A DNA stretch of 64,000 nucleotides from a virus (lineage: Duplodnaviria; Heunggongvirae; Uroviricota; Caudoviricetes): IMG/VR virus record IMGVR_UViG_3300044796_000394; one strand, written 5' to 3'. Below are positions 15,528 to 52,867 of the stretch, piece by piece (position 1 is the stretch's first letter; every line of letters begins with the position of its first letter). The position numbers were made by a program, and so were the translations under genes. The notes under the pieces were generated by a model. The model was given only the letters and a program-made list of their open reading frames with translations, did not search any database and was not told the DNA's origin.

Positions 15528-15584
15528 AAAAATAAAATGCAAAAGTTGACAATACATAATGATATGACTTCTATTCTTGAATTA

Positions 15585-16850
15585 ATGGGCTGCAATTTTA
15601 CCAACTTTGTTAATTACAAAGAAGGCAAAGATACAGCAGCTATCGAACCCCACGTTATCAAAGCTGATCCACCGATGAAAATTCCGGCTGGATTGAAGAG
15701 ATTGGCTGAAGCCTTCAAAAAGGCCAAGGAAGTTTCTATCGGCAAGGAAATCGATACGAAAGCCGGTGGCGAAAAAGACGTTACGCTTAAAGCCAAACGC
15801 CTCTTTATCGTAGGCGGTGCCGTACGTGATCACATGCTGAACCACACGCCAAAGAACTTTGACTTGGCTACTGATGCCCACCCAGAAGAAGTCACTAAGA
15901 TTTTACAAGCTGCAAAGCCTTCTATTCAAATTGTCAAGCAAGACCCCAAAAAGGGCTGTACGACAGTTAAAGTTGACGGTGAAAGCTACGAAATCCAAAC
16001 TCTCAAAAAGAAGAGCGATAATAAAGAAGAAGGCGATGTTTTCACGGCAGAACCGGGCGAAGATAGCCAAAGTCGTGATTACACAGTTAACGCCCTTTAT
16101 TACGATATTTGTGCCAATCAAATCATTGACCACGTTGGAGGATTGCGTCACCTTCAAGACGGTACTGTAAAAGCCATTGGTGGTGCGGATAAACTCAAAG
16201 CTGATGGGATGACGAAATTCAAAGGCATGAGATTATTGAATACCATGCCAAACGGTAAGTTTGATGATGAAACCAAAGCGGCAATGGATAAACATAGCGG
16301 TGATGATGAAGACCTCAATCCAGAAAAAGTGAGAGAAGAATTCTTGCGAGGATTGGAACACGCCCACAGTGATGTTAAGAAGTACATCCAATCTTATGCA
16401 CAACAAGGATTGCTGGCAAAGGTGTTCCCAAAACTCCAAATTTCTAAGGATGTTCCAGATTCAATTTCCAAGAGTCGCCCCCTCGTTTTGGCTTTCTTGT
16501 TAAAAGACAACAAACCTTCCAAGTTGGTACCAGCATTGAAAGCTTTGAAGTACAGCGATAGAGAAATCAAAGATGCTGTTTACCTTATCAATCTGCTTTG
16601 GTTCGCCCCAGACTTTGTGTACGAATTCAAGAAAGAACTTTTGAATACGAGTCTCACCCGTCGCCAAATTCTGGATTGGGCTAAATTAGTTAAGCTCGAT
16701 AAAGGCATGATTGAAAAATTGGTAGATTATCAACTCAGAATTAACGGTGATAATGTTCCCAAGTCGCCCGGTGAAGACGCTACTGCTTCCCGTGAGAAGA
16801 TTAAGAAGATGGAAGCCGACGAATTCAAAAAAACCTTATCGGAGAAGTAA
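15585..16850 (+). CDS. Class II tRNA nucleotidyltransferase (CCA/poly(A) polymerase head) homolog with degenerate motifs
   Basis: FIVGGAVRD, NFDLAT, SRDYTVNALYYD, IIDHVGGLRHL, PEKVREEF; start may be 15537 or 15585. Confidence 0.85.
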   Translation: MGCNFTNFVNYKEGKDTAAIEPHVIKADPPMKIPAGLKRLAEAFKKAKEVSIGKEIDTKAGGEKDVTLKAKRLFIVGGAVRDHMLNHTPKNFDLATDAHPEEVTKILQAAKPSIQIVKQDPKKGCTTVKVDGESYEIQTLKKKSDNKEEGDVFTAEPGEDSQSRDYTVNALYYDICANQIIDHVGGLRHLQDGTVKAIGGADKLKADGMTKFKGMRLLNTMPNGKFDDETKAAMDKHSGDDEDLNPEKVREEFLRGLEHAHSDVKKYIQSYAQQGLLAKVFPKLQISKDVPDSISKSRPLVLAFLLKDNKPSKLVPALKALKYSDREIKDAVYLINLLWFAPDFVYEFKKELLNTSLTRRQILDWAKLVKLDKGMIEKLVDYQLRINGDNVPKSPGEDATASREKIKKMEADEFKKTLSEK

Positions 16851-19953: not shown

Positions 19954-21456
19954 TTAAATCTCCGACGGCGCATCCATCACGGAAGTTTTACCGCTGCCCG
20001 TCATCGGGAACGGAATGACTTCTTTCATAGAAGTTTCGCCGCATACCAACATCGCCAACCTGTCTATTCCCAAAGCGATACCACCGTGCGGAGGCGTTCC
20101 CAAATCGAACGCTTCCAACATATGCCCAACACTCGCATTGATTTGAGCGTCGGAATATCCCATCACACGATAAGTAGCAGTTAACAATTCCCTACTGTGA
20201 GAACGAATGCTACCGCTACCGATTTCCATACCGTTACAAACCAAGTCGTACTGGTATGCTTGGATTTCGGCAATGTTTTCGCCTTTTTTGTGCCATTCGA
20301 CATGTTCATCGATTGGCCGACTGAACGGGTTGTGCATGAACGTCCAGCCAGACTTACTATCTAGCTTGTCAATTTCTTCTTTGGCTTGCTTGAACATCGG
20401 GAAGTTAACAATCCAACAGAAAGCCAAATCCCCGTTCGCCTTTTCCTTCTCGGTACGAATATCGGGTTTATCCGTGCCGTACTTGTCCATCGCCTCTTTA
20501 TAGGTGATGATGGGGAAAAGTTGCGATTTGAAATTGGCCTGTTCCCGTGGCTTGCCGAACCTTTCGCCGAAGTCCCTTTCCATACTCATCGTGTACGGCC
20601 ATTTTCGTCCACCCAAGGCTTCACGGGGCAACAAACACCGTTCTTCACGACACCCTGCCATACTGTTGAACAAAGCACCTTCAACGACATCAAAAATCTC
20701 TTCCTGTTTAACGAAAGACATTTCCAAGTCTAATTGAGTGAACTCAAACCCACGGTCAGCACGTAACGCCTCATCACGGAAACATCGGGCAATTTGGTAA
20801 TAGCCCTTGAACCCCGCTGTCATCAACAATTGTTTGTACTGTTGTGGACTTTGCGGCAGAGCGTAAAACTTGCCCGGTTGTAGGCGTGAAGGTACAACAA
20901 AGTCACGAGCGCCTTCTTTGGTGGACTGCGTGAGGATTGGAGTCTCAATTTCCGTTAAGTCGCAAGACTCCAACGAAGCCCGCAAATCACGAATGATCTT
21001 GGCACGTGTTTTAATGTTGGCTTGCATCCGTGGGCGGCGCAAGTCCAAGTACCTATAACGCAAACGAACATCTTCCGCAATGTCACGACCATCGCCATCA
21101 ATAGGCAACGGCAAATCCTTACACTTGTTAAGAATTGTCAATTTCTCAACGAACAACTCAACGGTACCAGTGGGAAGATTGGGGTTAACCATCTTCTCTG
21201 GACGTTTGACGACCTTGCCGACAAGCGATACAACGTCTTCACGGTTCAATTCCTCAAAGCCTTTACCGAGAAAGGCTTGAAGAATGTTTCCTTCATTGTC
21301 ACGAATGTCAATGAAAGTAAACTTGCCGTGACTACGTTTGGCATTTACCCACCCCTTAACTTCCCATAAGTTCCCACATTCCCACAAAGCGGGATAGGGG
21401 TTCGTGAGTTTAGAGATGGCTAGTGGAAGTATCATATTAATCTGCGTTGAGGGCAT
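19954..21456 (-). CDS. aspS: Aspartyl-tRNA synthetase, bacterial type without GAD insertion domain
   Basis: OB-fold (FIDIRD), RYRYLDLRR, EGARDF, LPQSPQQYKQ, CFRDE..R.DR..EFTQLD, PPHGGIALGIDRL. Confidence 0.97.
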   Translation of the reverse strand: MPSTQINMILPLAISKLTNPYPALWECGNLWEVKGWVNAKRSHGKFTFIDIRDNEGNILQAFLGKGFEELNREDVVSLVGKVVKRPEKMVNPNLPTGTVELFVEKLTILNKCKDLPLPIDGDGRDIAEDVRLRYRYLDLRRPRMQANIKTRAKIIRDLRASLESCDLTEIETPILTQSTKEGARDFVVPSRLQPGKFYALPQSPQQYKQLLMTAGFKGYYQIARCFRDEALRADRGFEFTQLDLEMSFVKQEEIFDVVEGALFNSMAGCREERCLLPREALGGRKWPYTMSMERDFGERFGKPREQANFKSQLFPIITYKEAMDKYGTDKPDIRTEKEKANGDLAFCWIVNFPMFKQAKEEIDKLDSKSGWTFMHNPFSRPIDEHVEWHKKGENIAEIQAYQYDLVCNGMEIGSGSIRSHSRELLTATYRVMGYSDAQINASVGHMLEAFDLGTPPHGGIALGIDRLAMLVCGETSMKEVIPFPMTGSGKTSVMDAPSEI

Positions 21457-21942: not shown

Positions 21943-22518
21943 TTATTTGATGTTAGTGTCTAGCTTAACCGTAGACTGCATAAGCGATTTGACATTATCT
22001 TTACAGAACCCGAAACCCTGACGTTCAATGAATTCGTAAATGACACCAGTTAACAAACTCGGCTTAGTAAAGATTTGAGTCAAACCCTCACACGTAAAAG
22101 CCTTGTCACTGGTGAACTCGGCAAAACCTTTTTCCAGCCATTCCTTTTTCTTATCTTCAACATTCGGCACTTCATAAGCCAAATGGTGAATGCCGCCGAT
22201 ATTACCACGGGCCTTGACCCAATTACCAACAATACTACCTTCCGTACCTTCACTCACGAAGATTTCAGGTGCCATATGGTAAGTCAAACCTGTTGGGCCA
22301 TTCGCATCCCAAACCATACTAAACGGGGGATCGTAATCCTTGTACTTGATTTCGTTTTTCTCTGGTGGTTCCAAGGCGATACACCTAGCTACATCTGTTT
22401 TTTCATCATTGAAAAAGATGTCAAATTCAGACTGAAAGGTGTATCCGAACGCATCCATGAAAAACTTAACCGTCTTATCCCTATTGGCGGTACGATATGC
22501 AATGTGGTCTAGTCTCAT
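21943..22518 (-). CDS. VOC-fold metalloenzyme resembling the HPPD C-terminal domain
   Basis: LDHIAY, GIHHLAY, LTQIFTKP, YEFIER, GFCKDNVKSLMQS (His/His/Glu metal triad). Confidence 0.75.
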   Translation of the reverse strand: MRLDHIAYRTANRDKTVKFFMDAFGYTFQSEFDIFFNDEKTDVARCIALEPPEKNEIKYKDYDPPFSMVWDANGPTGLTYHMAPEIFVSEGTEGSIVGNWVKARGNIGGIHHLAYEVPNVEDKKKEWLEKGFAEFTSDKAFTCEGLTQIFTKPSLLTGVIYEFIERQGFGFCKDNVKSLMQSTVKLDTNIK

Positions 22519-22996: not shown

Positions 22997-24274
22997 TTAT
23001 GTCAACTTGAATCCAGGCGCAAAGCATCGCAAAATTTGAATAATTGAATCGGCAGATGCAGTGTCCAAAGTAACACCTTTATTCTTGTTGTAGAATTCCA
23101 TTAATCCACTCACAACCTTGTTCAACTTGAAGTTCGTTACGTTATGATCGATCTCTTTTTCCAGTTCTGGGATATTAACAGGCGGCGGTAATTTCAAATC
23201 ACTTTCCGCTTTACCCAACCAAACTTTCATGCGATTCAAAAATCGTTTCAATCCAACGATCTTGTCATCAGACCAATCCCCGCCATCAAAATAGTGTCCC
23301 AAAAACATTAAGTACATCCGGAGTTCATCCGAGTCGTAATTTTCAGGATTGACGGCATTACCTTTGGACTTGCCCATCTTGGCACCGTTACAAGTAATCA
23401 TCCCCTGATGGATTACCTTGCGGAACGGTTCCTCTTCCGGTACAATGCCCAAATCGTATAAAAACATATGAATGAAGCGAGCATAGATCAAATGCATACA
23501 AGCATGTTCAGCCCCGCCAACATACAAATCCACTGGACGATACGAACCCTTCGGCAAGAATTCATCCTTGCTATCAGTCAAGTACCGCAAGAAGTAAAAA
23601 GAACTATCAACGAAAGTATCTAACGTATCAGTTTCACCCTCTATCGGAATAGGACAACCCCACTTCCTTTGGCGAGATACGCACCAATCCCTCAAATTAG
23701 CTAACCAAGCACGCTGCTGCTTAATAGTACCCTCTGGATAATCAATCTTATCCAAATTGGCAATCAAACGATCCTTATAATCAGTAATCTTGAAGTACCA
23801 TTGGTTCATGGTATTTTCAGAAACCTTGCTATCACAGCGGTCGCACTTTTCATCCTTAACTTGTTCGTTGGCCAATACGGTTTCACAAGAGGGGCACCAA
23901 TTGACAACACCGTTAGCCTTATATGCCAAACCCTTCTCGTACAACTTCATGAACAGCCACTTAGTCCACTTCTCATAATTTGCGTTACAAGTGATGAACT
24001 TTTCTTCGTACTGAGTATTCATTCGCTCCATCTGATGACGGAAGCGTTCAATATTCAAGAAAGTTACGTCGGCAGGATCACCGCCGATTTGCCGTGCGTA
24101 GTTTTCAGCAGGCAAACCGTAGGCGTCATAACCGAAAGGTTGGTTAACTTCAATACCTTTGTACCTTAACCAACGACAATAACTATCTACGAGAGCGTAG
24201 TTGTAGTAATGCCCTAAGTGCAAACCGGCACCACTAGGATAGGGGAACATAACAACAACATTTTGATTATTCAT
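22997..24274 (-). CDS. leuS: Minimal leucyl-tRNA synthetase (no CP1 editing, Leu-specific or C-terminal domain)
   Basis: MFPYPSGAGLHLGH, GYDAYGLPAEN, WCPSCETVLANEQV, LRDWCVSRQRKWGCPIP, DTLDTFVDSS, GGAEHACMHLIYARF, KMGKSKGN; only 425 aa. Confidence 0.95.
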   Translation of the reverse strand: MNNQNVVVMFPYPSGAGLHLGHYYNYALVDSYCRWLRYKGIEVNQPFGYDAYGLPAENYARQIGGDPADVTFLNIERFRHQMERMNTQYEEKFITCNANYEKWTKWLFMKLYEKGLAYKANGVVNWCPSCETVLANEQVKDEKCDRCDSKVSENTMNQWYFKITDYKDRLIANLDKIDYPEGTIKQQRAWLANLRDWCVSRQRKWGCPIPIEGETDTLDTFVDSSFYFLRYLTDSKDEFLPKGSYRPVDLYVGGAEHACMHLIYARFIHMFLYDLGIVPEEEPFRKVIHQGMITCNGAKMGKSKGNAVNPENYDSDELRMYLMFLGHYFDGGDWSDDKIVGLKRFLNRMKVWLGKAESDLKLPPPVNIPELEKEIDHNVTNFKLNKVVSGLMEFYNKNKGVTLDTASADSIIQILRCFAPGFKLT

Positions 24275-28970: not shown

Positions 28971-29933
28971 TCACATATATTCAAGATTCGTATATGAAAC
29001 CTTATCACAGAGAATTGAATAAATCAACGCCTTTCTGACAGTCACACCATTCTTTGGTTGTTCTTTCAAATATCTAACACGTTTATCACCGTCCAACGAT
29101 GTAGGAATTTCTTCATTTCTCGGCATTGGATGCATGATCAAAGATTTCTCTGGCAAAATCTTCAAATCACTTTCTGTCAAACAAAAATCCTTCCACCGAT
29201 CAGCGTGAATGGAATAATCCACCATCCGCTCTTTCTGCAACCGAGTCATGTAAACCACATCCGGTGAAGATTGAAAGGAATCCTTGATAGACTCGTATTT
29301 GTTAACTTGAACCCTTCTACTCACCAACCAATCTGCCAATTCATCAGGTAAAGACAAACGGTTCGGACTGGTAAGCGATAAAGTTAACTTCGGATAGTTT
29401 GACAGCAAGCGTACGAGGCTGTGTACGGTTCTTCCGTGAAGAAGGTCGCCACATATCATTACGTTGAGATGATCCAATTTGCGGTGCTTTTTGATCGTGT
29501 ACAGGTCAAGCAAAGCCTGTGTGGGATGCTCGCCCGTACCATCCCCCGCATTGATTACAGGAACCTTTGCAACCTTGGCTGCACGTTCTACGGCATTTAA
29601 CACCGGAGTTCGTAAAACGATAATATCGGCATAGTTGGAAACGGTAGCAACCATATCTTCTATGGATTCACCTTTGGCAGCAGATGAGGTTCCGGAATCG
29701 GATACGGTAATGACATTGCCACCCATACAGTACATGGCAGCTTCAAATGAAAGTCGTGTTCTAGTAGAAGGTTCCAAAAAAAGTGTAGCAAGGGTTTTTC
29801 CCTTAGCTAACGAATTAGTGTAAAATAATTTGTCATCTTTAACAACGGCGGCATCAGAAACGGCATTGGCAACGTGAAATAACTCATCCAAACTCTCACG
29901 AGTTTCAAATTGTTTGGCAGAAATGAGGTGCAT
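28971..29933 (-). CDS. pyrB: Aspartate carbamoyltransferase catalytic subunit
   Basis: FLEPSTRTRLSF, KGES, NAGDGTGEHPTQALLD, GDLLHGRTVHS, RLQKER, HPMP. Confidence 0.97.
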   Translation of the reverse strand: MHLISAKQFETRESLDELFHVANAVSDAAVVKDDKLFYTNSLAKGKTLATLFLEPSTRTRLSFEAAMYCMGGNVITVSDSGTSSAAKGESIEDMVATVSNYADIIVLRTPVLNAVERAAKVAKVPVINAGDGTGEHPTQALLDLYTIKKHRKLDHLNVMICGDLLHGRTVHSLVRLLSNYPKLTLSLTSPNRLSLPDELADWLVSRRVQVNKYESIKDSFQSSPDVVYMTRLQKERMVDYSIHADRWKDFCLTESDLKILPEKSLIMHPMPRNEEIPTSLDGDKRVRYLKEQPKNGVTVRKALIYSILCDKVSYTNLEYM

Positions 29934-39870: not shown

Positions 39871-40266
39871 ATGAAATATCCCCACGCCCCATATAGACCA
39901 GTACCACCCGTAAAGACGAAAACAGTTAATCACGGCTCTGAAGTGATTTATACTGGCGATCTTTTTGCTCTTGATCAAATACCAAGCAGTGCTACCCATA
40001 TGAAATTTGACAGGGGCGATGACAGTTACGATGGTTGTCAAGAAGTTCGTTTTATTGAACAAGTTAATTTGAGCGAAGAAGAGATAGCCAAAGATACCGC
40101 TGCTTACGAAAAGAAATTAAAGAAGTACGAAAAAGATTTAGCTAAATTCAATTCGGATTTGAAATCTTATAACGAAAACGCCAAAAACAGAAAACTGGAA
40201 CAACAAAGAAAACAATATCTCAGACTCAAGAAGAAGTTTGAGAATATTGACGAAATAAAAAGTTAG
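39871..40266 (+). CDS. Hypothetical coiled-coil protein
   Basis: C-terminal EQQRKQYLRLKKKFE. Confidence 0.55.
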   Translation: MKYPHAPYRPVPPVKTKTVNHGSEVIYTGDLFALDQIPSSATHMKFDRGDDSYDGCQEVRFIEQVNLSEEEIAKDTAAYEKKLKKYEKDLAKFNSDLKSYNENAKNRKLEQQRKQYLRLKKKFENIDEIKS

Positions 40267-41279
40267 ATAACGCCGACTTTTTTCCAAGCCTTGTTGAATG
40301 CATTGGTTTCCGGACCGGGGCCGAACAATTTGCGACTGACCTTTAACGTCAGATCGGCAAAATCTTGGAAAGTTGTATTAGGATCTGAAAGCCTGCGAGT
40401 TAAGGTGTTATACCAGACTCTACCCGCTTTCTCCCAAGCATTGCCCCCAATATCCACGGCAGCAAGATAAAATGCGTGCGAAGGAATACCACAATTCATG
40501 TGAATTCCACCGTTATCATCAGTTGTATTGACGTAGTCCTTCATATCAGCAACACACGGATCTTTGCCCAATACTTTATCATCGTAAGCTGTACCGGGTG
40601 CTTTGAGACTTCGGATACCAACACCATTGACTTTTTTAGTGAATAAGCCTGCTCCAATAATCCATTCGGCTTGATCTGCTGTTTGTTTGTGCTTATACTG
40701 TAATGACAAGCTTCCGAATACGTCAGAAATGGCTTCATTCATAGCGCCGGGTTGATCGTGGTAACCTAACTGAAGAATCGAACCAGTAACGCCGTGAGTC
40801 ATTTCATGGCCGATAACTTCAAGACACTTGGTAAATCTTAAAAAGATTTTTCCATCACCGTCACCAAAAACCATGCGTTCGCCATTCCAGAAAGCATTGT
40901 TAAAGTTTTTGCCGAAGTGAACGGTGCTAAATAACTTCATCCCGTTTCCATCGAGTGAATTGCGGTTGTAAGCACCAAGATAAAAGTCGTAAACGTCGCC
41001 TGTGTGTTCGTATGCTTCATCTACTGATTTGTCGCCATCTGGTGCTTGGCCTTCTTTGCGACTAACTTGACCAATGAGGTTTTGTGTGTGATCAGCACTT
41101 TGAATAACTCGGAATTTGCCACTGTCTCTTTTACCGAGATTGTAACGACCGAGAATTTCCCGGTGTCCACGAATTCTTTCACTGGAAGTCAAAGTGGCTA
41201 ATGCCCAATGTTTTTGATCGTTTTCACCGTGGTTAACGATGTGTTTCAAGATATGAGGCGGCAAGATATAATTAAGCAT
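40263..41279 (-). CDS. M4 metallopeptidase, protealysin-like
   Basis: ILPPHIL propeptide motif, NNAFWNG, FGDGD, HEMTH, NEAISD, DNGGIHMNCGIP. Confidence 0.93.
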   Translation of the reverse strand: MLNYILPPHILKHIVNHGENDQKHWALATLTSSERIRGHREILGRYNLGKRDSGKFRVIQSADHTQNLIGQVSRKEGQAPDGDKSVDEAYEHTGDVYDFYLGAYNRNSLDGNGMKLFSTVHFGKNFNNAFWNGERMVFGDGDGKIFLRFTKCLEVIGHEMTHGVTGSILQLGYHDQPGAMNEAISDVFGSLSLQYKHKQTADQAEWIIGAGLFTKKVNGVGIRSLKAPGTAYDDKVLGKDPCVADMKDYVNTTDDNGGIHMNCGIPSHAFYLAAVDIGGNAWEKAGRVWYNTLTRRLSDPNTTFQDFADLTLKVSRKLFGPGPETNAFNKAWKKVGVI

Positions 41280-42916: not shown

Positions 42917-43177
42917 ATGCCATTTCTAGGACTTGCTTGTACGAAACCCGGACATACTGACAAAGAAATTACAAAATTGTTAGTGACAAAGCATCAACAT
43001 GATGTTATACTACTTCCTCTCAAAGTTGGCTATTTTCACGTAGAAAATGTCCCCGATGATTTACTGGAACCTTTGAAAGAAATTGCCAGAGTGTATCGTG
43101 GCGAATTAGTGAAACCGGGCAGCCCAGAGATGGAAAGACTTAAAGAAGTACATTATCCCCACTTAAACGGATATTAA
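42917..43177 (+). CDS. Hypothetical protein
   Basis: 86-aa ORF; TKPGHT resembles next gene TPKTGHT. Confidence 0.5.
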   Translation: MPFLGLACTKPGHTDKEITKLLVTKHQHDVILLPLKVGYFHVENVPDDLLEPLKEIARVYRGELVKPGSPEMERLKEVHYPHLNGY

Positions 43178-43178
43178 C

Positions 43179-43400
43179 ATGTCTCTCGTTTTTATTACAC
43201 CGAAAACCGGACATACAATGCAAAAGGTGTTTAATTACCTACTTTCCAAAGATATTGACATCACTACGGTGAATGTCATCACAATGAAGGCCAAAGTACC
43301 CAAAAAGTACTTTGAACAGTTAGAGAAAATGGCTACGGTTATCACACAGGAACATTATGAACAAACTCTACCCAACGCTCAGCAAGTACATTCTGGCTGA
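43179..43400 (+). CDS. Hypothetical protein
   Basis: 73-aa ORF. Confidence 0.5.
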   Translation: MSLVFITPKTGHTMQKVFNYLLSKDIDITTVNVITMKAKVPKKYFEQLEKMATVITQEHYEQTLPNAQQVHSG

Positions 43401-44574
43401 CAAAAATGCCATCACCGTAGACCTTGACAGAAGTCATGGATCATGGTTAGTGGATGATGAGGGACGAGAACGGCTCGATCTCTTCTCTCAATATGCAAGT
43501 CAACCCTTGGGTTGGAACGATCCAGATGTACTGGCTCAAAAAGACCGGCTCATCCGTATCGTTCAACACAACGTTGCTAACCCTGATTTTTACACTCCTG
43601 AATATGCTCAATTCGTAGAGACATTCGCATCATTCGGCAGTGATTTCAAACACTTCTTCTTCATTGCCGGTGGTACATTGGGTGTAGAGAATGCCTTGAA
43701 AGCAGCATTTGATTACAAGGCAAAAAAGAATGGTTGGTCGGGTGAAAAAGTTAACAGTTTGGATGTAATTCATTTCCGCAATGCATTCCACGGACGAAGC
43801 GGTTATACATTATCACTAACCAATACCACTCCGGACAAGACCGACAATTTCCCCAAGTTCGATTGGACTCGGATGGATATTCCGAATGATGAAATTGGAG
43901 AAGAAAGCGTACTGGACGAGATTTGTGGCAGACTTAACCACAACAAGGAAGTGGCAGCAATTCTGATTGAACCTATTCAGGGTGAAGGTGGTGATAATCA
44001 CTTTACGCCGTCGTTTATGTTTGAATTGAAGAAATTGGCAGACGAATATGATGTCATGTTGATTTTGGATGAAGTTCAGACGGGAATGGGATTAACTGGT
44101 AAGACTTGGGCGTACGAGCATTATGGCATCGTACCTGACTTGATTTCCTTTGGCAAAAAGGTTCAAGTGTGTGGTTGTGCGTCCACTGGCAAGATTGATG
44201 CTGTACCAGACAACGTATTCAAGGTCAAGTCCCGCATTAACAGTACGTGGGGCGGGAATTTGGTGGATATGGTACGATCAACGATTAGCATGGAAGTGAT
44301 TCGTGAAAGAAAGTTGATAGAAAATGCAGCCAAGGTAGGCAAATACTTCCAAATCAAACTTGCAAAGTTGGGATTGGAAAACCTACGTGGTAAAGGGTTG
44401 ATGATTGCTTTTGATCTTCCCAACAGCGATAGCAGGAACAAATTCCTAGATCGTTTGCATGAAAAAGCGATTGCGATCAAATGTGGCAAAAAGAGTGTCA
44501 GATTACGACCGCACTTAACTTTTGGAACAGAGGAGGCCGATTTGGCCGTCGATATGATCCGTGAATCTTTATAA
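43357..44574 (+). CDS. lat: L-lysine 6-transaminase (class III PLP aminotransferase)
   Basis: GGTLGVENALKAAFD, FHGRSGYTLSLTNT, EPIQGEGGDNHF, DEVQTG, FGKKVQVCG, SRINSTWGGNLVDM. Confidence 0.9.
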   Translation: MNKLYPTLSKYILADKNAITVDLDRSHGSWLVDDEGRERLDLFSQYASQPLGWNDPDVLAQKDRLIRIVQHNVANPDFYTPEYAQFVETFASFGSDFKHFFFIAGGTLGVENALKAAFDYKAKKNGWSGEKVNSLDVIHFRNAFHGRSGYTLSLTNTTPDKTDNFPKFDWTRMDIPNDEIGEESVLDEICGRLNHNKEVAAILIEPIQGEGGDNHFTPSFMFELKKLADEYDVMLILDEVQTGMGLTGKTWAYEHYGIVPDLISFGKKVQVCGCASTGKIDAVPDNVFKVKSRINSTWGGNLVDMVRSTISMEVIRERKLIENAAKVGKYFQIKLAKLGLENLRGKGLMIAFDLPNSDSRNKFLDRLHEKAIAIKCGKKSVRLRPHLTFGTEEADLAVDMIRESL

Positions 44575-44576
44575 CT

Positions 44577-45191
44577 ATGAGAACCATGAAAAACAAAAAA
44601 ATAATTGAACTAGCTCCAACGGCACTCAACTACGGCTTCTACGGCTACAAAATACGAAAAGAAGATTTTGGTATTGGGTATCTTTCCGTACCGGGTGAAT
44701 TCGCCAACACAAACAGTAATTGGGGTGAAATATCATCAAAAACCCTTTTCCAGTGGCACAGTTGTCGTGAAACTTTTCATCGGGTGTGTACCAGACAAAA
44801 GGTAAAGAAATTTCTCTTTAGAACACCTGTACCTAATAAGGTCATTGCCTTTATGGAAGGGATTCAAGACAAACTCAAACTCGAAGGTTCTGATAGACTA
44901 AAAATTCTGAGAACAAATTTTAAGAATATCGTTTGTGTTTTTATGAGTCGTTGGTGGCGTGTCCAAATCCGTCGCAGCTTATTAACCGTCTTATTAAGAG
45001 CAAGCCGTTCTTCAAGAGTCAATTCTTGGGAAGCTATTGGTCCAAAGAACAAGTACCTTGGCAATCAAATTGCTTTTAGAAGATTCATGAATGGTCACAC
45101 TAAGTATAATGGTCAATTGCTCGGCGGTTGGCGAAGTGCACTTGGTTATCGTACTGAAAAAGAAATCAAGAAAAAGCTCCTCAAAGGCTAA
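44577..45191 (+). CDS. Hypothetical basic protein
   Basis: 204-aa ORF. Confidence 0.55.
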   Translation: MRTMKNKKIIELAPTALNYGFYGYKIRKEDFGIGYLSVPGEFANTNSNWGEISSKTLFQWHSCRETFHRVCTRQKVKKFLFRTPVPNKVIAFMEGIQDKLKLEGSDRLKILRTNFKNIVCVFMSRWWRVQIRRSLLTVLLRASRSSRVNSWEAIGPKNKYLGNQIAFRRFMNGHTKYNGQLLGGWRSALGYRTEKEIKKKLLKG

Positions 45192-45193
45192 GA

Positions 45194-45472
45194 ATGCTGT
45201 GTGTAATCAACCCTGAAAAAATTGAGAATTTAACTTTTACGGCTTCCGAAAAGGAGTGGCGGGTTTTCCTATCAAAATCTTGTGTGGCAAGTTCCGCCTC
45301 TGCTTTTCTGGAAGTGCTTTGTATCGGTGTCAGTCACGAATATACTGTTTACAAAGTGAAGCAAAGAGGTTATATTCATGAGTATATTCCCAACTTTTAC
45401 TTGGGACAGGTTAAATTTACTCAGCTTGAGCGTAGTGATGTAATATCAACAATCAATTTCAGACAACAGTAA
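45194..45472 (+). CDS. Hypothetical protein
   Basis: 92-aa ORF. Confidence 0.45.
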   Translation: MLCVINPEKIENLTFTASEKEWRVFLSKSCVASSASAFLEVLCIGVSHEYTVYKVKQRGYIHEYIPNFYLGQVKFTQLERSDVISTINFRQQ

Positions 45473-45483
45473 GAGGATCGACA

Positions 45484-45675
45484 ATGTGCGATCAAACTTG
45501 GTGGAATGAAGTCAAAAGGTTAATGGTCGAGAACTTCTATCGTAGTCCCGAAGACGCCGATAAGATCATAGAAAAACGAAAACTAACTGCAATTGTGGAC
45601 TTTAACGATTCCGCATTGTATGAAGCGGAATCTCTTTCTTGGAATATTAATGACAAACCTAGCATTCGGCGCTGA
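45484..45675 (+). CDS. Hypothetical protein
   Basis: 63-aa ORF with GAGG SD. Confidence 0.5.
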   Translation: MCDQTWWNEVKRLMVENFYRSPEDADKIIEKRKLTAIVDFNDSALYEAESLSWNINDKPSIRR

Positions 45676-45931
45676 AACTGTAACCCTTGTCGTCAATCGT
45701 GATGAGGTTTTATACAAAGGCACTAAAAATGCGTGGCTTTATGTTTTCGCCCACTGTCCAATTATAGATGGATGGAAAAAGGGTGAAAGAATTTGTCATG
45801 AATTGTATTTTTCCAGTAAGGAAAAATTTGAAGAACTTTGGGGGCGTCCCATTGACGACAGAGAAGCTTTGATTAAAGTTTGGGTGCCCGAAGATTTTGA
45901 TGATTGGGATTACATTCCAAACGATTATTAA
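45650..45931 (+). CDS. Hypothetical protein
   Basis: Likely start MTNLAFG. Confidence 0.5.
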   Translation: MTNLAFGAETVTLVVNRDEVLYKGTKNAWLYVFAHCPIIDGWKKGERICHELYFSSKEKFEELWGRPIDDREALIKVWVPEDFDDWDYIPNDY

Positions 45932-45943
45932 CGGAGCAAAAGC

Positions 45944-46141
45944 ATGCAAGTCAACTTCCCAGAGTTTGTTGAAATCATGCGGGTGGCTGAAAAGGAAAAT
46001 GAAATCTCACGTGAAGAATCTTTACTGATTCGTAATCAAGTGAGTACGCTAATGCGGCCAAAGTGTCCACCTAAGCTGGCACTTGCATTAGCCCTCGGTG
46101 TTAACGCAAAACTCAAACGTTCGGTTGTTCAAATTAAGTGA
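45944..46141 (+). CDS. Hypothetical protein
   Basis: 65-aa ORF with GGAG SD. Confidence 0.45.
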   Translation: MQVNFPEFVEIMRVAEKENEISREESLLIRNQVSTLMRPKCPPKLALALALGVNAKLKRSVVQIK

Positions 46142-46148
46142 GTTAACT

Positions 46149-46469
46149 ATGAGAAGTATGGATGCTTGTGAGTTGGAGCGACTTATCAAAGAGACCTACA
46201 ACGCAAACGAGGAACAATGTGATATTGTCTCTGGCATAATGATGGATCAAAAAATCATTGAGGCCGATGCATATTCACAAGACCCAGACAAGGATGCTGA
46301 TTCAAAGGAAGTAATTAAGAAGTTTATAGCAGGCGAGTTGGAGCTAAGCGAGCATTATCCTGACAACGCCCAAACGATGGGGCCGCAGGTGCTTGAATAC
46401 ATCATCAACGACCTTTGCTTCAAGAAAAAAATCAAAAAGGGTGAATTCCTCATTCGTTTTGATGATTAA
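46149..46469 (+). CDS. Hypothetical protein
   Basis: Likely start MRSMDAC within ORF 46098-46469. Confidence 0.45.
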   Translation: MRSMDACELERLIKETYNANEEQCDIVSGIMMDQKIIEADAYSQDPDKDADSKEVIKKFIAGELELSEHYPDNAQTMGPQVLEYIINDLCFKKKIKKGEFLIRFDD

Positions 46470-46483
46470 CAAAAAGAATTACC

Positions 46484-46762
46484 ATGAATCCAGAAAAGCA
46501 AGCCATTTTTGATCTAGTGACTTTGGGATACAATGTAGACTGTATCAATCTCAATGTAGGCTTCTTAACTATCAGACCGCTTGTCAATGGGCAGTATCTT
46601 GTATCTCATGATTTGGGTGCCCCACTCGACTTTGATGACCCTATGATGAGTTACGAATCTCTAGATGATACACCGCTTGATTTGAATACGAATTGGAACA
46701 AGACCTTTAATGATTTGAGTGAAGCGGTAGATTTGTTTGTAAGTTTGAGAGATTTCGGGTAA
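46484..46762 (+). CDS. Hypothetical protein
   Basis: 92-aa ORF. Confidence 0.5.
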   Translation: MNPEKQAIFDLVTLGYNVDCINLNVGFLTIRPLVNGQYLVSHDLGAPLDFDDPMMSYESLDDTPLDLNTNWNKTFNDLSEAVDLFVSLRDFG

Positions 46763-46768
46763 GATTGA

Positions 46769-46842
46769 GGCCAAGTGGTGGAACGGTTATACACGTTAGT
46801 TTTAGGAACTAATTTTTGAGGGTTCGAATCCCTCCTTGGTCA
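46769..46842 (+). tRNA. tRNA-Leu(UAG) with short (5-nt) variable loop; CCA not encoded
   Basis: Acceptor GGCCAAG/CTTGGTC, D-arm GTGGAACGGTTATACAC, anticodon arm TTAGT-TTTAGGA-ACTAA, variable TTTTT, T-arm GAGGG-TTCGAAT-CCCTC, discriminator A then CTA. Confidence 0.93.
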
Positions 46843-46859
46843 CTAAACAGGAGAATTTC

Positions 46860-47390
46860 ATGTCAAGAACTGTGAATACTGGTAATGGCAAACCCGTTGG
46901 ACTTTATTTTTTGATCTGCTGTGCAGTCGCAGCATTTGTAATTTTTGGGCTTGTGTATGTCATGACTCCAAAGGCCGTACCTACACCAACCACATTAACC
47001 AAGTCGGCAGTAGGATCAAGTTTTGCTGTCATGGAACAAGACGACAGAATTCAATTTGTTAACTGGGATAAGGTACTGGTTCTTGCAAAAGGCAATGGAC
47101 ACGTAACAATGGCTGTTCGTGATATTGAAGAAGCACCGCCCGGCGAATGTGCAGTGGTTTATTTGGTAGATGGCAATAAAGAGTATGTCGTAGGGCCAGC
47201 GTGCTTCTACCCCGTTGGCATCAAGAAATCCAGTTTTGGATTTCAGATCGATCACGTTCTCGCCAACATTAATTCGTTATCATCGGATACCTTTATCCGT
47301 GTCAGAGACACCAAAGGTAATCTATTAAACTTTGGTGTAGTAGAAGTCAAAGTGACGAGCAAACAACCTGTGATGGGTGAACGCCAATGA
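46860..47390 (+). CDS. Membrane-anchored hypothetical protein
   Basis: AGGAG SD; TM helix LYFLICCAVAAFVIFGLVYV. Confidence 0.6.
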   Translation: MSRTVNTGNGKPVGLYFLICCAVAAFVIFGLVYVMTPKAVPTPTTLTKSAVGSSFAVMEQDDRIQFVNWDKVLVLAKGNGHVTMAVRDIEEAPPGECAVVYLVDGNKEYVVGPACFYPVGIKKSSFGFQIDHVLANINSLSSDTFIRVRDTKGNLLNFGVVEVKVTSKQPVMGERQ

Positions 47391-47668
47391 AACGACCAAC
47401 AAAATTTTTGTACCAATCCATCAACGTATTGCCAAGGCGATTTTGGTTAAGTGAAAAAAGGCACAAGTATCAATTTGATTGTCCTTTATTGGACGAAAAT
47501 CAAAAGACTTGGCCTGAACATGAGGATTATAGTCCCTTCTATACGGTTTCCGTTTGGGGGGTCGATAGTCGCTTCCACGAAATCGGAGCAGTACCTGTAG
47601 ATGCCGTTGATTTTGATGTGGATAAATTCTTGGTTGATGCCAGCATCCTTGACATTATTGGTGAATAA
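47387..47668 (+). CDS. Hypothetical protein
   Basis: 93-aa ORF, ATGA-coupled. Confidence 0.5.
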   Translation: MKRPTKFLYQSINVLPRRFWLSEKRHKYQFDCPLLDENQKTWPEHEDYSPFYTVSVWGVDSRFHEIGAVPVDAVDFDVDKFLVDASILDIIGE

Positions 47669-47744
47669 TGACCCAGAATAAATTCGGATGGATTTTATTT
47701 TTCTTGTTTTTGTTGTGGGTATTAGTTTGTAGCGTCATATAAGA

Positions 47745-47772
47745 TTGATTCTACATTTTTATTTGGTAAAAT
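47745..47772 (+). promoter_or_regulatory. Possible sigma70 promoter
   Basis: TTGATT-16 nt-TAAAAT with TGn. Confidence 0.5.
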
Positions 47773-47796
47773 AAGACCATCACAAGGAAGCAGTGA

Positions 47797-48630
47797 ATGT
47801 TAAAGAAGAAATCAAAATTGACAGCGGCGATTAAACCGAGACGCTCCAGACACCTTAGTAAAATTATCAAAAAAGTAAAATCTCTTAGGGGACACAAGAT
47901 GACTTCGGAAACGGTACCGACTACGGAAACGGAAGTACTGAAGATGCAGGATGACGGTTACACCGGCACCGCTCCAAGTGACGAGGTTAAACCTTCAACC
48001 GAAGTTGTCAAACCTGTTACGCCTGCTGTCAAAGCATGGGCGGCAGCACCGAGAACATATTACTCGCCGTGGCAACGTCAAAACGGTTTCCTTCAACCCG
48101 ACCATATGACAAGGCCGGATCGGTTTCCCAAAATCTTCGAAACCGCCCAAAAGTTTAACCCGAACGCCAAACGAGTTTTGTCATTCGGGTGCTCCACCGG
48201 TGAAGAATGTCAATCGCTCCGCAAATATTTCCCCAACGCTGAAATCGTTGGTGTGGATTTGGACTATACGAGCATTCAAAAAGCTCGCAAAAACAACAAA
48301 GACCCAAACATCCATTTCCATACGGATCTTGGTGCAACCGGCAAGTACGATGTTGTACTCTGCTTGATGGTGTTTTTCTGCATGGATTGTCCTGTCACTT
48401 ACGGCGGTTTTTCCACAGTTCTGAAAAACGTCCACAAGTACATTAACGAAGATGGACACTTGCTCATTTACACCAGCGATCACAATCCGAGTTGGGTTGA
48501 GGAAATCGCCACTGAGTACGAACCGTTAAATGTTTGGACTCGGACACATGATAAAAACAAGAAAGACTATTATAACGGTTACTATCGGCGACTCCGCAGT
48601 GACGAGTTGCCGCCAAAAACCGGTGAGTGA
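47797..48630 (+). CDS. Class I SAM-dependent methyltransferase (CheR-like motif I)
   Basis: RVLSFGCSTGEE, IVGVDL, YDVVLC; start may be 47899. Confidence 0.85.
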   Translation: MLKKKSKLTAAIKPRRSRHLSKIIKKVKSLRGHKMTSETVPTTETEVLKMQDDGYTGTAPSDEVKPSTEVVKPVTPAVKAWAAAPRTYYSPWQRQNGFLQPDHMTRPDRFPKIFETAQKFNPNAKRVLSFGCSTGEECQSLRKYFPNAEIVGVDLDYTSIQKARKNNKDPNIHFHTDLGATGKYDVVLCLMVFFCMDCPVTYGGFSTVLKNVHKYINEDGHLLIYTSDHNPSWVEEIATEYEPLNVWTRTHDKNKKDYYNGYYRRLRSDELPPKTGE

Positions 48631-48772
48631 TTCCGCCTTGCACGCTCACCGGTTTTTCAAACAAAGAGTTAGACATGGATGATAAAAAAGCACCGCCCGG
48701 TTGGGTGATTTTGATTCTTGTTGTTCTTTTTGGCTTTGCCATTCACGGTTGTTTACAGGGAACGTGCTTCAA

Positions 48773-49123
48773 ATGAGCAAGCCCACAAACTGGTCTTTTG
48801 ATCCCACCGTTTTGGGCTTCTATTTTTCCAAAAAATTCAAGTCTGGCATTCTCGATAAAAACTTCAACAAAGATGAATTCACTTGGTATGCCGAATTCGT
48901 TAAAGTTGTTGAAGGTGAAGAATATGACATGTCGGTGTTGTCTCATATCCGAAAAGTTGGTAAAAGTAAGTACCGCATAATGCGGGAACGATGGAAACAC
49001 ATGGTGAGTAATTTCTACGAAGATCGTTACTCTCAAAAACAATGGGAATGTGTTATTGAAAGTCAAAAAGACTTTGAAGAAGTTGTTAAAGAACTAGGTC
49101 TCATTAGGCCGTGGAAAAAATGA
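48773..49123 (+). CDS. Hypothetical protein
   Basis: Likely start MSKPTNW. Confidence 0.5.
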   Translation: MSKPTNWSFDPTVLGFYFSKKFKSGILDKNFNKDEFTWYAEFVKVVEGEEYDMSVLSHIRKVGKSKYRIMRERWKHMVSNFYEDRYSQKQWECVIESQKDFEEVVKELGLIRPWKK

Positions 49124-49323
49124 AAAGACTGTTCGTATTGCCAAGTCCAAATCTGGATCGTAAAAGCAAGCTCAAATGGTTTTTTTATATTACCTGTTGG
49201 GGTTATTTGTTCACCCCCTTCAGTCGTAAAGGTACCGCTCACGCAATTGTTAGAGATTGGGTGTTATCATTAAGTGCCGAACAAGTGTCGTTATTAACCA
49301 AGGAAAAGAATGAAAACTACTGA
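49111..49323 (+). CDS. Hypothetical protein
   Basis: 70-aa ORF. Confidence 0.45.
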   Translation: MEKMKRLFVLPSPNLDRKSKLKWFFYITCWGYLFTPFSRKGTAHAIVRDWVLSLSAEQVSLLTKEKNENY

Positions 49324-49741
49324 ACTTCCAAAAGCCCTCAAAACTCGTATCGCTGATGCCATTTCTGGTCTGTCTAAAAAAGTAGATAAGCGAGCAGAAA
49401 AATATGAAGAATTATTCTCTGTAGCCAAAGAATTTGAAGGCATCAAAACTGCTGCTGGCCATCCAATCAAGGTTGGCGTCAGATCACAATCCCTCAACGT
49501 TAACGGTGTGGTTGGTTTCCATCGCATTATTACACTTGAAAAAGAAGAACCGCTGACTGTCGGTTTCACTAGCCCCAACGTCTTTGTCCCACTTTCAGCA
49601 CCGTTCGCTTATTGCTATTGGGCACCGCACGACGGCAATTATTACATCGGTAGCTGGACGACCGCACCACTCGGCGCACAACCCTTTGGTTGTATTGAAG
49701 AAGTCGTTGTCGGTTTGACTGAAAGAATTATTGCCAATTAA
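49310..49741 (+). CDS. Hypothetical protein
   Basis: 143-aa ORF with AAGGA SD. Confidence 0.55.
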   Translation: MKTTELPKALKTRIADAISGLSKKVDKRAEKYEELFSVAKEFEGIKTAAGHPIKVGVRSQSLNVNGVVGFHRIITLEKEEPLTVGFTSPNVFVPLSAPFAYCYWAPHDGNYYIGSWTTAPLGAQPFGCIEEVVVGLTERIIAN

Positions 49742-50550
49742 ATTGTTAACATCTTAGAAATAAGTCGCATACGATCAAGTATGCGACTTATTGTCGTACT
49801 ATTAGGCAAATCAGGATTATTCAAATCCTTCCAAGACTCCACCTTCGACTTCGTTCTCAACAAATGAGCAACAATCATTTTCTCAGAACCCGGAATGTCT
49901 CCATATAAATCAGGACAGTTACACCACACCGGCAATTCATGACAAGGCAATCCTAATGCTGCCAATGACAGACACAGAGCAAATTGCGGTCTGTGATAAT
50001 GACTCTTCATCGTTATATCAGAAGCTATCAAATATTCTGCCATCGCCTCATTCAATTGTACAACATACTTCGAAGGCATTGCCACAAAGCCCAAATTGAA
50101 GTAATAGGGTGATTTCTTATCGTCGTAATTAGTTGTACAAGAGAGTTTAGGTAAAGGCACACCACAACCATCAAAGAGCCTTTCCCATCCTGTACGATTA
50201 GCAAAGGGGGACTGGTAGGCCATTACGCCGCATACCTTATCCTTCGCTGGCTTCGTAATTGGCGATAAATCACACAAGACCAGCATATCGGTATCCGTGT
50301 AGATCGTAACGTCGCCTTTGGTGGGACAGGCTGTTAGTCCACCATACCACATAGGATTAAAATGCTTATTGTGAGTTATGATTTCGGATTTTTTTCTGAG
50401 ATATGAACTTTCAAGAGTATCGCCGGGATTTTGACATATAGTTAAACAAAAAGGTGTGTTGCCATAAAGTTCAAGAGAACGAATGAAAACCTCAGCTTGG
50501 AATTCATATTTCTTCCCGCCGCTCAAGGTCATGTAAAAGTGAGTCAACAT
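49738..50550 (-). CDS. GT-A fold (GT8-like) glycosyltransferase
   Basis: IYTDTDML (DxD), YFNLGFV, IVAHL; likely start MLTHFY at 50550. Confidence 0.75.
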   Translation of the reverse strand: MLTHFYMTLSGGKKYEFQAEVFIRSLELYGNTPFCLTICQNPGDTLESSYLRKKSEIITHNKHFNPMWYGGLTACPTKGDVTIYTDTDMLVLCDLSPITKPAKDKVCGVMAYQSPFANRTGWERLFDGCGVPLPKLSCTTNYDDKKSPYYFNLGFVAMPSKYVVQLNEAMAEYLIASDITMKSHYHRPQFALCLSLAALGLPCHELPVWCNCPDLYGDIPGSEKMIVAHLLRTKSKVESWKDLNNPDLPNSTTISRILDRMRLISKMLTI

Positions 50551-51337: not shown

Positions 51338-52867
51338 TTACTTCTTTCTTGGGAACAATGGTTCCAACTTTTCGCTAGTGACCTCAATCTTTCCTTCGGT
51401 ATCGTATTCACGGTGAATGATTTTGTACATCTGATCCCACGTTAACTTTTCCCATTCGTCTTTCCAATTGAAAGCCTTGTATACTTTTTCAGCAGTATCC
51501 GGCAAGTAGGGTTTGAGATAAATGGAAACGATTCGCAAGCTCATGCAACACCAACGTAGGAACGATGGTGTTGACTCAATGGTTTTGTCCCACGGTTTGT
51601 TTTCTTCGATTTGAGTATTGATGTACGTCAAAAGATTCCAAACCAATTGAAGGGCATCACGGTAGTGGTAAAAACACGTTTTTTCAATCCATGTAGAATT
51701 TCTTGGCAGCGGCGGTGCCCATTTTTCGTTATGTGAATTTTCCGCTGTTCCAAACTTGCGAACCAGAGTGTGAACCCGGCTAAGCAGATTTCCAAGATTG
51801 TTAGCAAGATCGGAGTTGTAAACTTCCTTAAAGTGCTGAGGATCATAATCGCCATCTGAGCCGAATGAGCATTTCGCCAAAAAGTAGTAGCGGTAAGCAT
51901 CACGACCGTATTCGCTAACGATTTCTGTTGGATCGATAAACGTACCACTCTTGGAAATCTTCTCACCCTTCGTTTGGATGAATCCATGTCCAAACACCTT
52001 GGAAGGCAGAGCGATATGTGGTTGCGCAATTGGCTGTTCGGCACCAATGTTGTACGCTGCAATCATAGCTGGCCAAAAGATACAGTGGAAGCGAGTGATG
52101 TCTTTCCCGATGATGTGAGCGTCCGCAGGCCACCATTTGAGGAACATCTCTTCATTGTTCCCAAACCCTGCCCCGGTCAAATAATTAATGAGGGCGTCAA
52201 ACCAAACATAAATTACTTGGCTTTCATCCCACGGAATCGGAATGCCCCATCCTTGATTGCGACGACTAATCGAGATGTCTTCAATCTCTTCCAAAAAGGC
52301 TTCCACTTCATTTGCTCTCACTTGCGGTCGAACATTAACCAAAAAGTTTTTGGCGACTTCTTTGAACCTCGGATCGGACAACCGGAAGAAGTAGTTTTCC
52401 TCTTCAACCTGAACTATGTCGAGGGTTTGGTGATTCGGACACTTGCCATCAACGAGGCTTTTACCTGTCTTGAATTCTTCACAACCGGCACAGTAAGGAG
52501 CTTTATACTGTTTTTTGTAAATGGCTCCCGATCTTTCGGCTATGGTAATGAATTTGGTTACTGCTGCCTTGTGTTCGGGGGAGGTGGTCTGGATGAAGGC
52601 ATCGTAGGAAATGCCGAGCAAGTCCCAGACCTTGCGAAATTCGATTGCCATTTCATCGCAATACGCTTGTGGATCTTTGTTGAGTTTCTTGGCACGTTCG
52701 GCAACTTTCAGGGTATTCTCGTCGTTACCCATTAAGAATCGTACTTCGTTGCCAGTCATCCGTTGGAACCGGGCTTGGGCATCAGCACCCAATTTCTCGA
52801 ATGCCGTTCCAATGTGAGGAAGACTGTTTGGGTAATCAATTGCGGTCGTGATGAAGAACTTAGACAT
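51338..52867 (-). CDS. metG: Methionyl-tRNA synthetase (short, no C-terminal appended domain)
   Basis: ITTAIDYPNSLPHIGT, CAGCEEF...CPNH knuckle, EENYFFRLS, YVWFDALINY, IGKDITRFH, KISKS, LANNLGNLLSR. Confidence 0.96.
   Translation of the reverse strand: MSKFFITTAIDYPNSLPHIGTAFEKLGADAQARFQRMTGNEVRFLMGNDENTLKVAERAKKLNKDPQAYCDEMAIEFRKVWDLLGISYDAFIQTTSPEHKAAVTKFITIAERSGAIYKKQYKAPYCAGCEEFKTGKSLVDGKCPNHQTLDIVQVEEENYFFRLSDPRFKEVAKNFLVNVRPQVRANEVEAFLEEIEDISISRRNQGWGIPIPWDESQVIYVWFDALINYLTGAGFGNNEEMFLKWWPADAHIIGKDITRFHCIFWPAMIAAYNIGAEQPIAQPHIALPSKVFGHGFIQTKGEKISKSGTFIDPTEIVSEYGRDAYRYYFLAKCSFGSDGDYDPQHFKEVYNSDLANNLGNLLSRVHTLVRKFGTAENSHNEKWAPPLPRNSTWIEKTCFYHYRDALQLVWNLLTYINTQIEENKPWDKTIESTPSFLRWCCMSLRIVSIYLKPYLPDTAEKVYKAFNWKDEWEKLTWDQMYKIIHREYDTEGKIEVTSEKLEPLFPRKK

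Follow-up and report, generated by a model that had tools for sequence, protein, structure and literature searches.

The window analysed here, a 64-kb stretch of DNA that forms the end of a 174.7-kb IMG/VR virus record (a large phage from peat soil), carries a tRNA-Leu(UAG) gene from which the variable arm is missing. Our preferred reading, to which we give a probability of about 0.65, is that the gene encodes a genuine short-armed tRNA-Leu(UAG), likely leucylated by the LeuRS of the host and possibly by a mini-LeuRS of the phage too, and that it would read CUA and CUG codons, perhaps all CUN codons. The arm-less tRNA-Leu is a widespread class in phages and bacteria, and the window copy is one member of it. 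Taken alone, the locus is unremarkable, since the idea that gave it prominence, that of a private pair with the mini-LeuRS, does not hold.

Structure and descent of the tRNA gene

The gene and its distinctive parts are the following:
46769..46842, + strand: type I tRNA-Leu with anticodon UAG, A73 and no encoded CCA (ARAGORN, Rfam, fold, alignment to type II relatives)
46803..46805, + strand: anticodon TAG (U34 A35 G36), followed by G37 (sequence, ARAGORN)
46813..46817, + strand: variable loop UUUUU, where related phage tRNA-Leu(UAG) have an arm of 11-20 nt (sequence, alignment, length census)

ARAGORN made a single call in the 64-kb window, tRNA-Leu(tag) at 46769-46843, and the only Rfam match in the same 64 kb was that of RF00005 at 46769-46842, which scored 61.3 bits (E 7.6e-11) where the gathering score is 29 and extended over the full model (positions 1-71 of 71). 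A sequence-only reading of this DNA had described a clean Leu-type cloverleaf with UUUUU as its variable region and had called for a covariance-model search; Rfam and ARAGORN agree on the gene, and the description was borne out in every detail checked against the sequence and the two programs.

The acceptor stem has seven base pairs (G1-C72, G2.U71 and five Watson-Crick pairs). U8 precedes a 3-bp D stem with G13.A22, and the D loop holds A14, A15, G18 and G19. The 5-bp anticodon stem carries the loop UUUAGGA (U33, UAG, G37), the T arm is made of the stem GAGGG/CCCUC and the T loop UUCGAAU, and the discriminator is A73. CCA is absent from the gene, which is directly followed on its 3' side by CUA. 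The minimum-energy fold showed the cloverleaf helices at -23 kcal/mol (z -2.25), with 4 of 200 shuffles equally good. All the elements of a cloverleaf are thus present (four helices, U8, A14, G18G19, U33 and a GTTCRA T loop), as are those of bacterial tRNA-Leu descent, namely the Leu anticodon, A73 and the Leu-type D arm (3-bp stem, G13.A22, A15, G18G19). A type II tRNA-Leu has a variable arm of at least 11 nt with a helix and the window tRNA has 5 nt at this place, which corresponds to the type I structure, an otherwise complete tRNA-Leu with a variable loop of about 5 nt as defined in the S. coelicolor study (PMC6614811).

The nearest matches of the window tRNA among 50,697 phage records were annotated as tRNA-Leu. 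By ARAGORN, the best of them were tRNA-Leu(UAG) of 80-84 nt in which a variable arm is present, though short (LR756511, GiJojo, LR745206, Hades and Sf-FR1). In an 11-sequence alignment, the window tRNA and five other arm-less tRNAs matched five type II tRNA-Leu(UAG) along their full length except for the arm, where there was a gap of 8-10 columns found nowhere else. Judged by this alignment, the window tRNA descends from long-armed phage tRNA-Leu(UAG) through loss of the arm alone.

The yeast mitochondrial tRNA-Thr(UAG) is likewise a tRNA of class I shape that bears a Leu anticodon. A similar recoding in the phage, in which the tRNA would be charged with another amino acid and CUA (or CUN) read differently in the phage genes, is nevertheless extremely improbable in our estimation: the entire tRNA body, with its D arm and A73, derives from tRNA-Leu, there is no G3.U70 in the window tRNA and most other synthetases read the anticodon (PMC9976931).

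Occurrence of the arm-less form

A broad pattern for tRNA(UAG), which required the Leu-type D arm and left the variable region free, matched 120 loci, with about 4800 stretches estimated in IMG/VR. The variable region measured 11-20 nt in 108 of 123 viral tRNA-Leu(UAG) matches, 9 nt in six and 5 nt in nine. A strict pattern was then defined by variable loops of 4-6 nt, the Leu D arm and any NAR anticodon. It found 122 loci in 14 of the 64 parts of IMG/VR (about 560 stretches estimated) and 121 loci in 20 of the 64 parts of a set of 185,579 bacterial and archaeal species genomes (GTDB; about 380 stretches estimated), the bacterial matches including Acidobacteriota, Nostocales, Bacteroidota, Saccharibacteria and others. 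All 247 parsed matches of the strict pattern had a Leu anticodon, and the Phe anticodons GAA and AAA, which the pattern permitted, were found in none of these 247. A variant of the pattern with a gap of 15-16 gave three stretches with 3-4-nt loops. The locus had been singled out from the sequence as the best candidate for a new system in the window; the arm-less form proves common in phages and bacteria.

Covariation was analyzed in 97 distinct arm-less sequences, composed of the window tRNA, those of phages Panino and TrudiRoth and 94 IMG/VR copies. Standard pairs made up 97.9% of the pair cells and both-side changes were found in 17 of the 19 pairs; none of 500 shuffles reached the level of the arm-less alignment and no slid register came near it. 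Invariance in parts of the D arm and of the T loop is imposed by the search pattern itself, which leaves the acceptor, anticodon and T stems free. This compensatory covariation shows that the arm-less class consists of working tRNAs under selection rather than of debris. A decaying, non-functional type II tRNA-Leu with a deleted arm would fit the clean deletion relative to the nearest relatives, and the tRNA decodes the rarest Leu codon of the contig. We find this explanation very improbable all the same, because none of the four helices and none of the conserved tertiary positions is damaged, the 97 distinct relatives hold the fold through compensatory changes and five nucleotides are the working length in S. 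coelicolor (PMC6614811). In 46 of the 97 sequences the tRNA opens with a G1.U72 wobble (alignment columns 1 and 76), and the window copy has G1-C72.

Short tRNA-Leu genes are of more than one kind. The D arm of the window tRNA is that usual in type II tRNA-Leu (GUGGUGGAA...ACAC), unlike the GUAGCCCAA kind, which is found in the 74-nt tRNA-Leu(CAA) of GiJojo and in many copies from huge phages. Huge phages and the Streptomyces phage GiJojo have in common a second kind of short tRNA-Leu, whose D arm is class-I-like (GTAGCCCAA...GAGGC) and whose variable loop ends in AGT (L137:8126-8200, L143:9752-9826, L125:6109-6183 and L003:2888-2961). Further kinds were seen at L130 (GGCGTCGTAGGCAA...) and L406 (GTACGCTAA...).

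Type I tRNA-Leu is already known from S. coelicolor (PMC6614811) and from animal mitochondria. The S. coelicolor tRNA-Leu(CAA) of Fan et al. 2019 (PMC6614811) is, like the window tRNA, of bacterial type with a 5-nt variable loop. In S. coelicolor a full-length LeuRS of the ordinary kind charges it alongside type II isoacceptors. The window tRNA differs from it in that its anticodon is UAG, it is phage-borne and it is known from the gene alone. Animal mitochondrial tRNA-Leu also has a short variable loop, with A73 and A14 as identity elements, but it is described as floppy with mismatched stems (PMC9976931), whereas in the window tRNA the stems are regular and the elbow (G18G19, UUCGAAU) is canonical. 

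Among phage isolates, the tRNA-Leu(UAG) of Panino (PP540027) and TrudiRoth (MZ501109) are like that of the window in architecture, in a near-identical variable loop (AUUUU) and in T-arm type. Both phages have many other tRNAs and no LeuRS-like gene, and their short tRNA is annotated plainly as tRNA-Leu; we found no paper in the open-access literature that remarks on its missing arm. The TrudiRoth type is held only by TrudiRoth (two records) and, over 64 nt, by SelmaRatti, a limitation that rules it out as a general T5-like trait. Larkin et al. are said to have engineered, in 2002, an E. coli tRNA-Leu without the variable and anticodon arms. Such an arm-less tRNA keeps A73 and the elbow of the D and T loops and accepts leucine (ref. 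53 of PMC9976931); it is a laboratory construct, whereas the window tRNA is encoded by a natural gene and has its anticodon arm complete.

The open-access literature, to which our search extended, yielded no paper on short-armed phage tRNA-Leu or on a phage mini-LeuRS. One exception among bacteria, that of Streptomyces, is in print (PMC6614811), and the window tRNA is one of hundreds of such genes in phages and many bacterial phyla. In practical terms, these genes provide a set of natural arm-less tRNA-Leu and, in the genome of the window tRNA, a naturally occurring LeuRS core of 425 aa, material with which the minimal recognition needs of a LeuRS can be probed.

The mini-LeuRS and its relation to short tRNA-Leu

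The gene for the phage enzyme lies 22.5 kb from the tRNA, close to the roughly 22 kb given in the sequence-only reading:
22997-24274, - strand: mini-LeuRS of 425 aa, catalytic core, candidate charger of the tRNA (family search, alignment, model)

Its best family was bacterial LeuRS, with 383 bits, which is below the full-length cut-off of 548. In a pairwise alignment it kept residues 34-226, 418-436, 487-578 and 635-691 of the T. thermophilus LeuRS, without the CP1 editing domain, the leucine-specific domain (LSD), the C-terminal domain and most of the anticodon-binding domain; in place of the 187 residues of the anticodon-binding and C-terminal domains it has only 75. The HIGH- and KMSKS-type motifs and the zinc-knuckle cysteines are invariant in 19 mini-LeuRS homologues, whose alignment columns are on average 70% identical. 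An AlphaFold model of the protein (pLDDT 87.7) had its best structural match in the LeuRS of M. mobile (PDB 3ziu; TM 0.89 on the query, 34% identity). The M. mobile enzyme also lacks CP1 and the LSD, yet its chain has 637 aa where the phage protein has 425 (PMC3643597). Full-length copies of the mini-LeuRS, with 50-71% identity, were found in 21 IMG/VR contigs, mostly of huge phages, and in LR745206 at 61%. At two loci, L140:10001-11241 and L144:10001-11237 (69% and 50% identity in the best segment), the translation showed 11 and 31 stop codons, respectively; these could reflect a frame shift in the match, a broken gene or another genetic code, and both loci were excluded from the alignment of homologues.

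Deletion of the C-terminal domain abolishes aminoacylation by the E. coli and T. thermophilus LeuRS, as stated in PMC3561953, so that charging by the mini-LeuRS is itself putative. Its gene uses UUG or UUA for 32 of its 36 leucines and CUN for four, with no CUA and no CUU. CUN codons make up 45% of the Leu codons contig-wide, and their depletion in this gene has a binomial p of 1.6e-5. Since the gene is nearly free of CUN, synthesis of the enzyme would barely depend on tRNA-Leu(UAG).

The sequence-only reading had proposed that tRNA and enzyme were reduced together and may form a partly orthogonal, private Leu pair. The two reductions are real: the alignments show a tRNA without its arm and a LeuRS without its C-terminal domain. 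The private pair is unsupported, as each gene type is also found without the other in complete phages. In its strong form, the proposal is that the mini-LeuRS, lacking the C-terminal and leucine-specific domains with which a type II tRNA would be held, acts preferentially or exclusively on the arm-less tRNA, and that the two maintain a leucylation channel apart from that of the host. The loss of charging in the C-terminally deleted enzymes (PMC3561953) speaks in its favour, since a tail-less enzyme may need another kind of substrate, and so does the failure of E. coli LeuRS to charge a natural type I tRNA-Leu, reported in PMC6614811. 

If the pair were private, each of the two gene types would be expected only where the other is present, and this expectation failed in both directions. 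Absence of the enzyme was assessed by searching whole records with the mini-LeuRS, a search that recovers the gene both in the contig from which it comes and in LR745206. No LeuRS-like gene was found in three complete isolate phages that carry arm-less tRNA-Leu: the Maribacter phage Panino (77 kb; 74-nt tRNA-Leu(UAG) with the loop AUUUU), the E. coli phage TrudiRoth (114 kb; tRNA-Leu of 77 nt including CCA) and the Streptomyces phage GiJojo (74-nt tRNA-Leu(CAA)). Two near-complete huge phages with arm-less tRNA-Leu, G016 (340 kb, 99% complete) and G017 (494 kb, 98% complete), gave no match to the mini-LeuRS either. The same was true of nine more arm-less contigs, which carry little weight as enzyme-free cases because they are 8-77% complete. 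In the other direction, the mini-LeuRS phage G033 (482 kb, 100% complete) has 55 tRNAs, among which the four tRNA-Leu all measure 83-84 nt. G032 (500 kb, 100% complete) has 41 tRNAs with five long tRNA-Leu and one doubtful short ARAGORN call, of 76 nt and without the GTTCGA T loop, that we do not trust. In G031 (608 kb, of which 200 kb picked for tRNA clusters were read), there were six long tRNA-Leu and one short tRNA-Leu(UAA), the latter 60 kb from the mini-LeuRS gene. The arm-less tRNA-Leu therefore occurs independently of the mini-LeuRS, the very outcome that the sequence-only reading had named as refuting its proposal, and the private pair is left unsupported.

A comparison of names had little power, given that 14 of 64 parts were scanned: none of the 80 listed contig names (of the 122 arm-less IMG/VR loci) was among the 21 mini-LeuRS contigs. 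In G030, a mini-LeuRS contig with 71% identity, the tRNA block consists of Glu and Asp tRNAs only, and no protein of it is common to the neighbourhood of the window tRNA. The eight Glu/Asp tRNA calls there (L470, G030:15001-35000) measure 75-86 nt and several are odd in length or shape.

We also looked for short tRNA-Leu genes within 10 kb on either side of the enzyme gene at 20 distinct mini-LeuRS loci (L137 and L138 are the same and were counted once). The controls were 16 contigs of 106-513 kb without the enzyme, taken from a random pattern sample, in which 10 kb on each side of a type II tRNA-Leu(UAG) were considered. tRNA-Leu genes occur at ten of the 20 mini-LeuRS loci, and at seven of these ten one or more are short; 14 of their 42 tRNA-Leu genes are short. 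In the controls, short tRNA-Leu were found in one of the 16 contigs and made up 2 of 27 tRNA-Leu genes, one more call being ambiguous. The resulting p values ignore kinship, although the mini-LeuRS phages may all belong to one clade, and they compare groups obtained by different kinds of sampling:
Loci with short tRNA-Leu among those bearing tRNA-Leu: mini-LeuRS 7/10, controls 1/16, Fisher p 0.0013
The same with the ambiguous control call counted as short: 7/10 against 2/16, Fisher p 0.0085
Loci with short tRNA-Leu over all distinct loci: 7/20 against 1/16, Fisher p 0.053
Short genes among tRNA-Leu genes: 14/42 against 2/27, Fisher p 0.018

LR745206 has three further short tRNA-Leu at 15-16 kb from its mini-LeuRS gene. 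The enrichment of short tRNA-Leu near the mini-LeuRS is no more than a hint, which would fit a looser functional tie.

The same Leu anticodon was observed in long and short form at the mini-LeuRS loci L125, L130, L137, L143 and L001 and at L396 of G017, as in caa75 with caa87 (L125), taa75 with taa81 (L137) and gag74 with gag84 (G017). This duplication in several mini-LeuRS phages, like the 7/10 against 1/16 proximity, would suit a dedicated pair. Against it stand the arm-less tRNA-Leu of the five enzyme-free phages, the exclusively long tRNA-Leu of G033, the five long and one doubtful of G032, the p of 0.053 over all 20 loci with their non-independence and with controls chosen by their type II tRNA, and the four CUN and zero CUA codons among the 36 Leu codons of the mini-LeuRS gene. 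On balance, we consider a dedicated pair quite unlikely. Equally doubtful is its extension to huge phages in general, in which two leucine channels would exist, the long-armed tRNA-Leu being charged by the host LeuRS and the short-armed ones preferentially by the mini-LeuRS. Were it true, reading CUN codons in the second channel would fall to the window tRNA, and that channel would sustain phage translation during a shut-down of host tRNA-Leu or LeuRS.

G017 carries long and short isoacceptors yet has no LeuRS, so such parallel forms exist in phages without the enzyme as well. They would also fit a short form that served to evade a host nuclease or a tRNA-depleting defence directed at the long-armed tRNA-Leu of the host, so that leucine codons would still be decoded during infection, with the host enzyme charging the tRNA, and the weak codon-supply motive on this contig (see below) points the same way. 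That phages escape host defences which deplete tRNAs has been put forward in general terms (PMC10264068), but that article concerns changes of the anticodon loop and the word 'variable' is absent from it; the anticodon loop of the window tRNA is canonical (UUUAGGA). Our analysis identified no bacterial nuclease directed at tRNA-Leu or at the arm, and the short form is also present in about 380 bacterial genome stretches. We hold this explanation to be unlikely.

Charging, codon use and genomic context

The preferred reading, that of a working tRNA-Leu charged by the host LeuRS, accords with what is known of leucine identity. In E. coli, as set out in PMC9976931, this identity resides in A73, A15-U48, G18G19 and contacts of the D and T loops, the sequence and fold of the arm being irrelevant, and tRNA-Leu retains activity when both the anticodon arm and the variable arm are removed. 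All of these E. coli identity elements are present in the window tRNA. In addition, the LeuRS of S. coelicolor charges a natural type I tRNA-Leu, for which five variable-loop nucleotides suffice (PMC6614811). The same study reports that the E. coli LeuRS and one Streptomyces LeuRS fail on the S. coelicolor type I tRNA-Leu(CAA) and that the leucine-specific domain decides its charging; by analogy with these failures, charging of the window tRNA by its host is not guaranteed.

In the proposed sequence of events, the tRNA would be transcribed within the row of genes in which it stands, released by RNase P and 3' nucleases and provided with CCA by a phage or host enzyme. A LeuRS would then recognise the elements that were kept, A73, U8-A14, A15-U48 and G18G19 with the T loop. 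The genes that bear on these steps are:
46484..46762, + strand: upstream ORF of 92 aa, no family match, stop codon 6 nt before the tRNA
46860..47390, + strand: downstream ORF of 176 aa, no family match, AGGAG and ATG start 17 nt after the tRNA
15537-16850, + strand: CCA-adding enzyme / poly(A) polymerase family protein (Pfam PolyA_pol 2.5e-27; NCBIfam matches all below cut-offs)

The two ORFs, on the same strand and separated from it by 6 and 17 nt, place the tRNA within a gene row. Promoter-like (12) and terminator-like (7) sites in 43000-50000 showed no excess over shuffles. The protein of the CCA-adding / poly(A) polymerase family may be relevant to a tRNA gene without CCA. In the neighbourhood, 16 of 17 ORFs had no PHROGs match. 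At 47797-48630 (+), 1 kb downstream of the tRNA, a SAM methyltransferase gave a weak match to the PHROG 'tRNA methyltransferase' (2.1e-08); its NCBIfam matches were to generic SAM methyltransferases alone, all far under the cut-offs.

Among the 4185 Leu codons of 207 crude ORFs on the contig, CUA is the rarest (259, 6.2%) and CUG the next (8.4%), with CUN codons together at the 45% given above. Taken by itself, codon supply is thus a weak motive for the tRNA. The contig's highest number of CUA codons (17 of 108 Leu codons) was seen in a 1177-aa ORF without family match at 11994-15527 (+); the next genes have five.

By ARAGORN, the tRNA-Leu(UAG) is the sole tRNA on the 174.7-kb contig. CheckV puts this contig at about 35% of a genome, so the missing two thirds may hold more and it cannot be claimed as the sole tRNA of the phage. 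G+C is even along the contig, and the phage collection contained no DNA match to 44000-49000. The tRNA region was found at 100% identity in one DNA run, which probably represents the source sample, and in one peat metatranscriptome run; the contigs of the RNA library had a flat depth of about 12-23 over the tRNA and aaRS regions alike, resembling the DNA run.

Other genes of the window with a family assignment are:
19954-21456, - strand: AspRS, 500 aa (542 bits against a cut-off of 443)
21943-22518, - strand: glyoxalase-fold protein
28971-29933, - strand: aspartate/ornithine carbamoyltransferase
40263-41279, - strand: thermolysin/protealysin-like M4 peptidase
43357-44574, + strand: class III aminotransferase
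51338-52867, - strand: MetRS, 509 aa
55383-56243, + strand: SAICAR synthetase

AspRS and MetRS are encoded, yet ARAGORN called neither tRNA-Asp nor tRNA-Met on the 175-kb contig. The five metabolic or cell-like genes in this list may be the reason why IMG/VR classes the record as 'provirus'.
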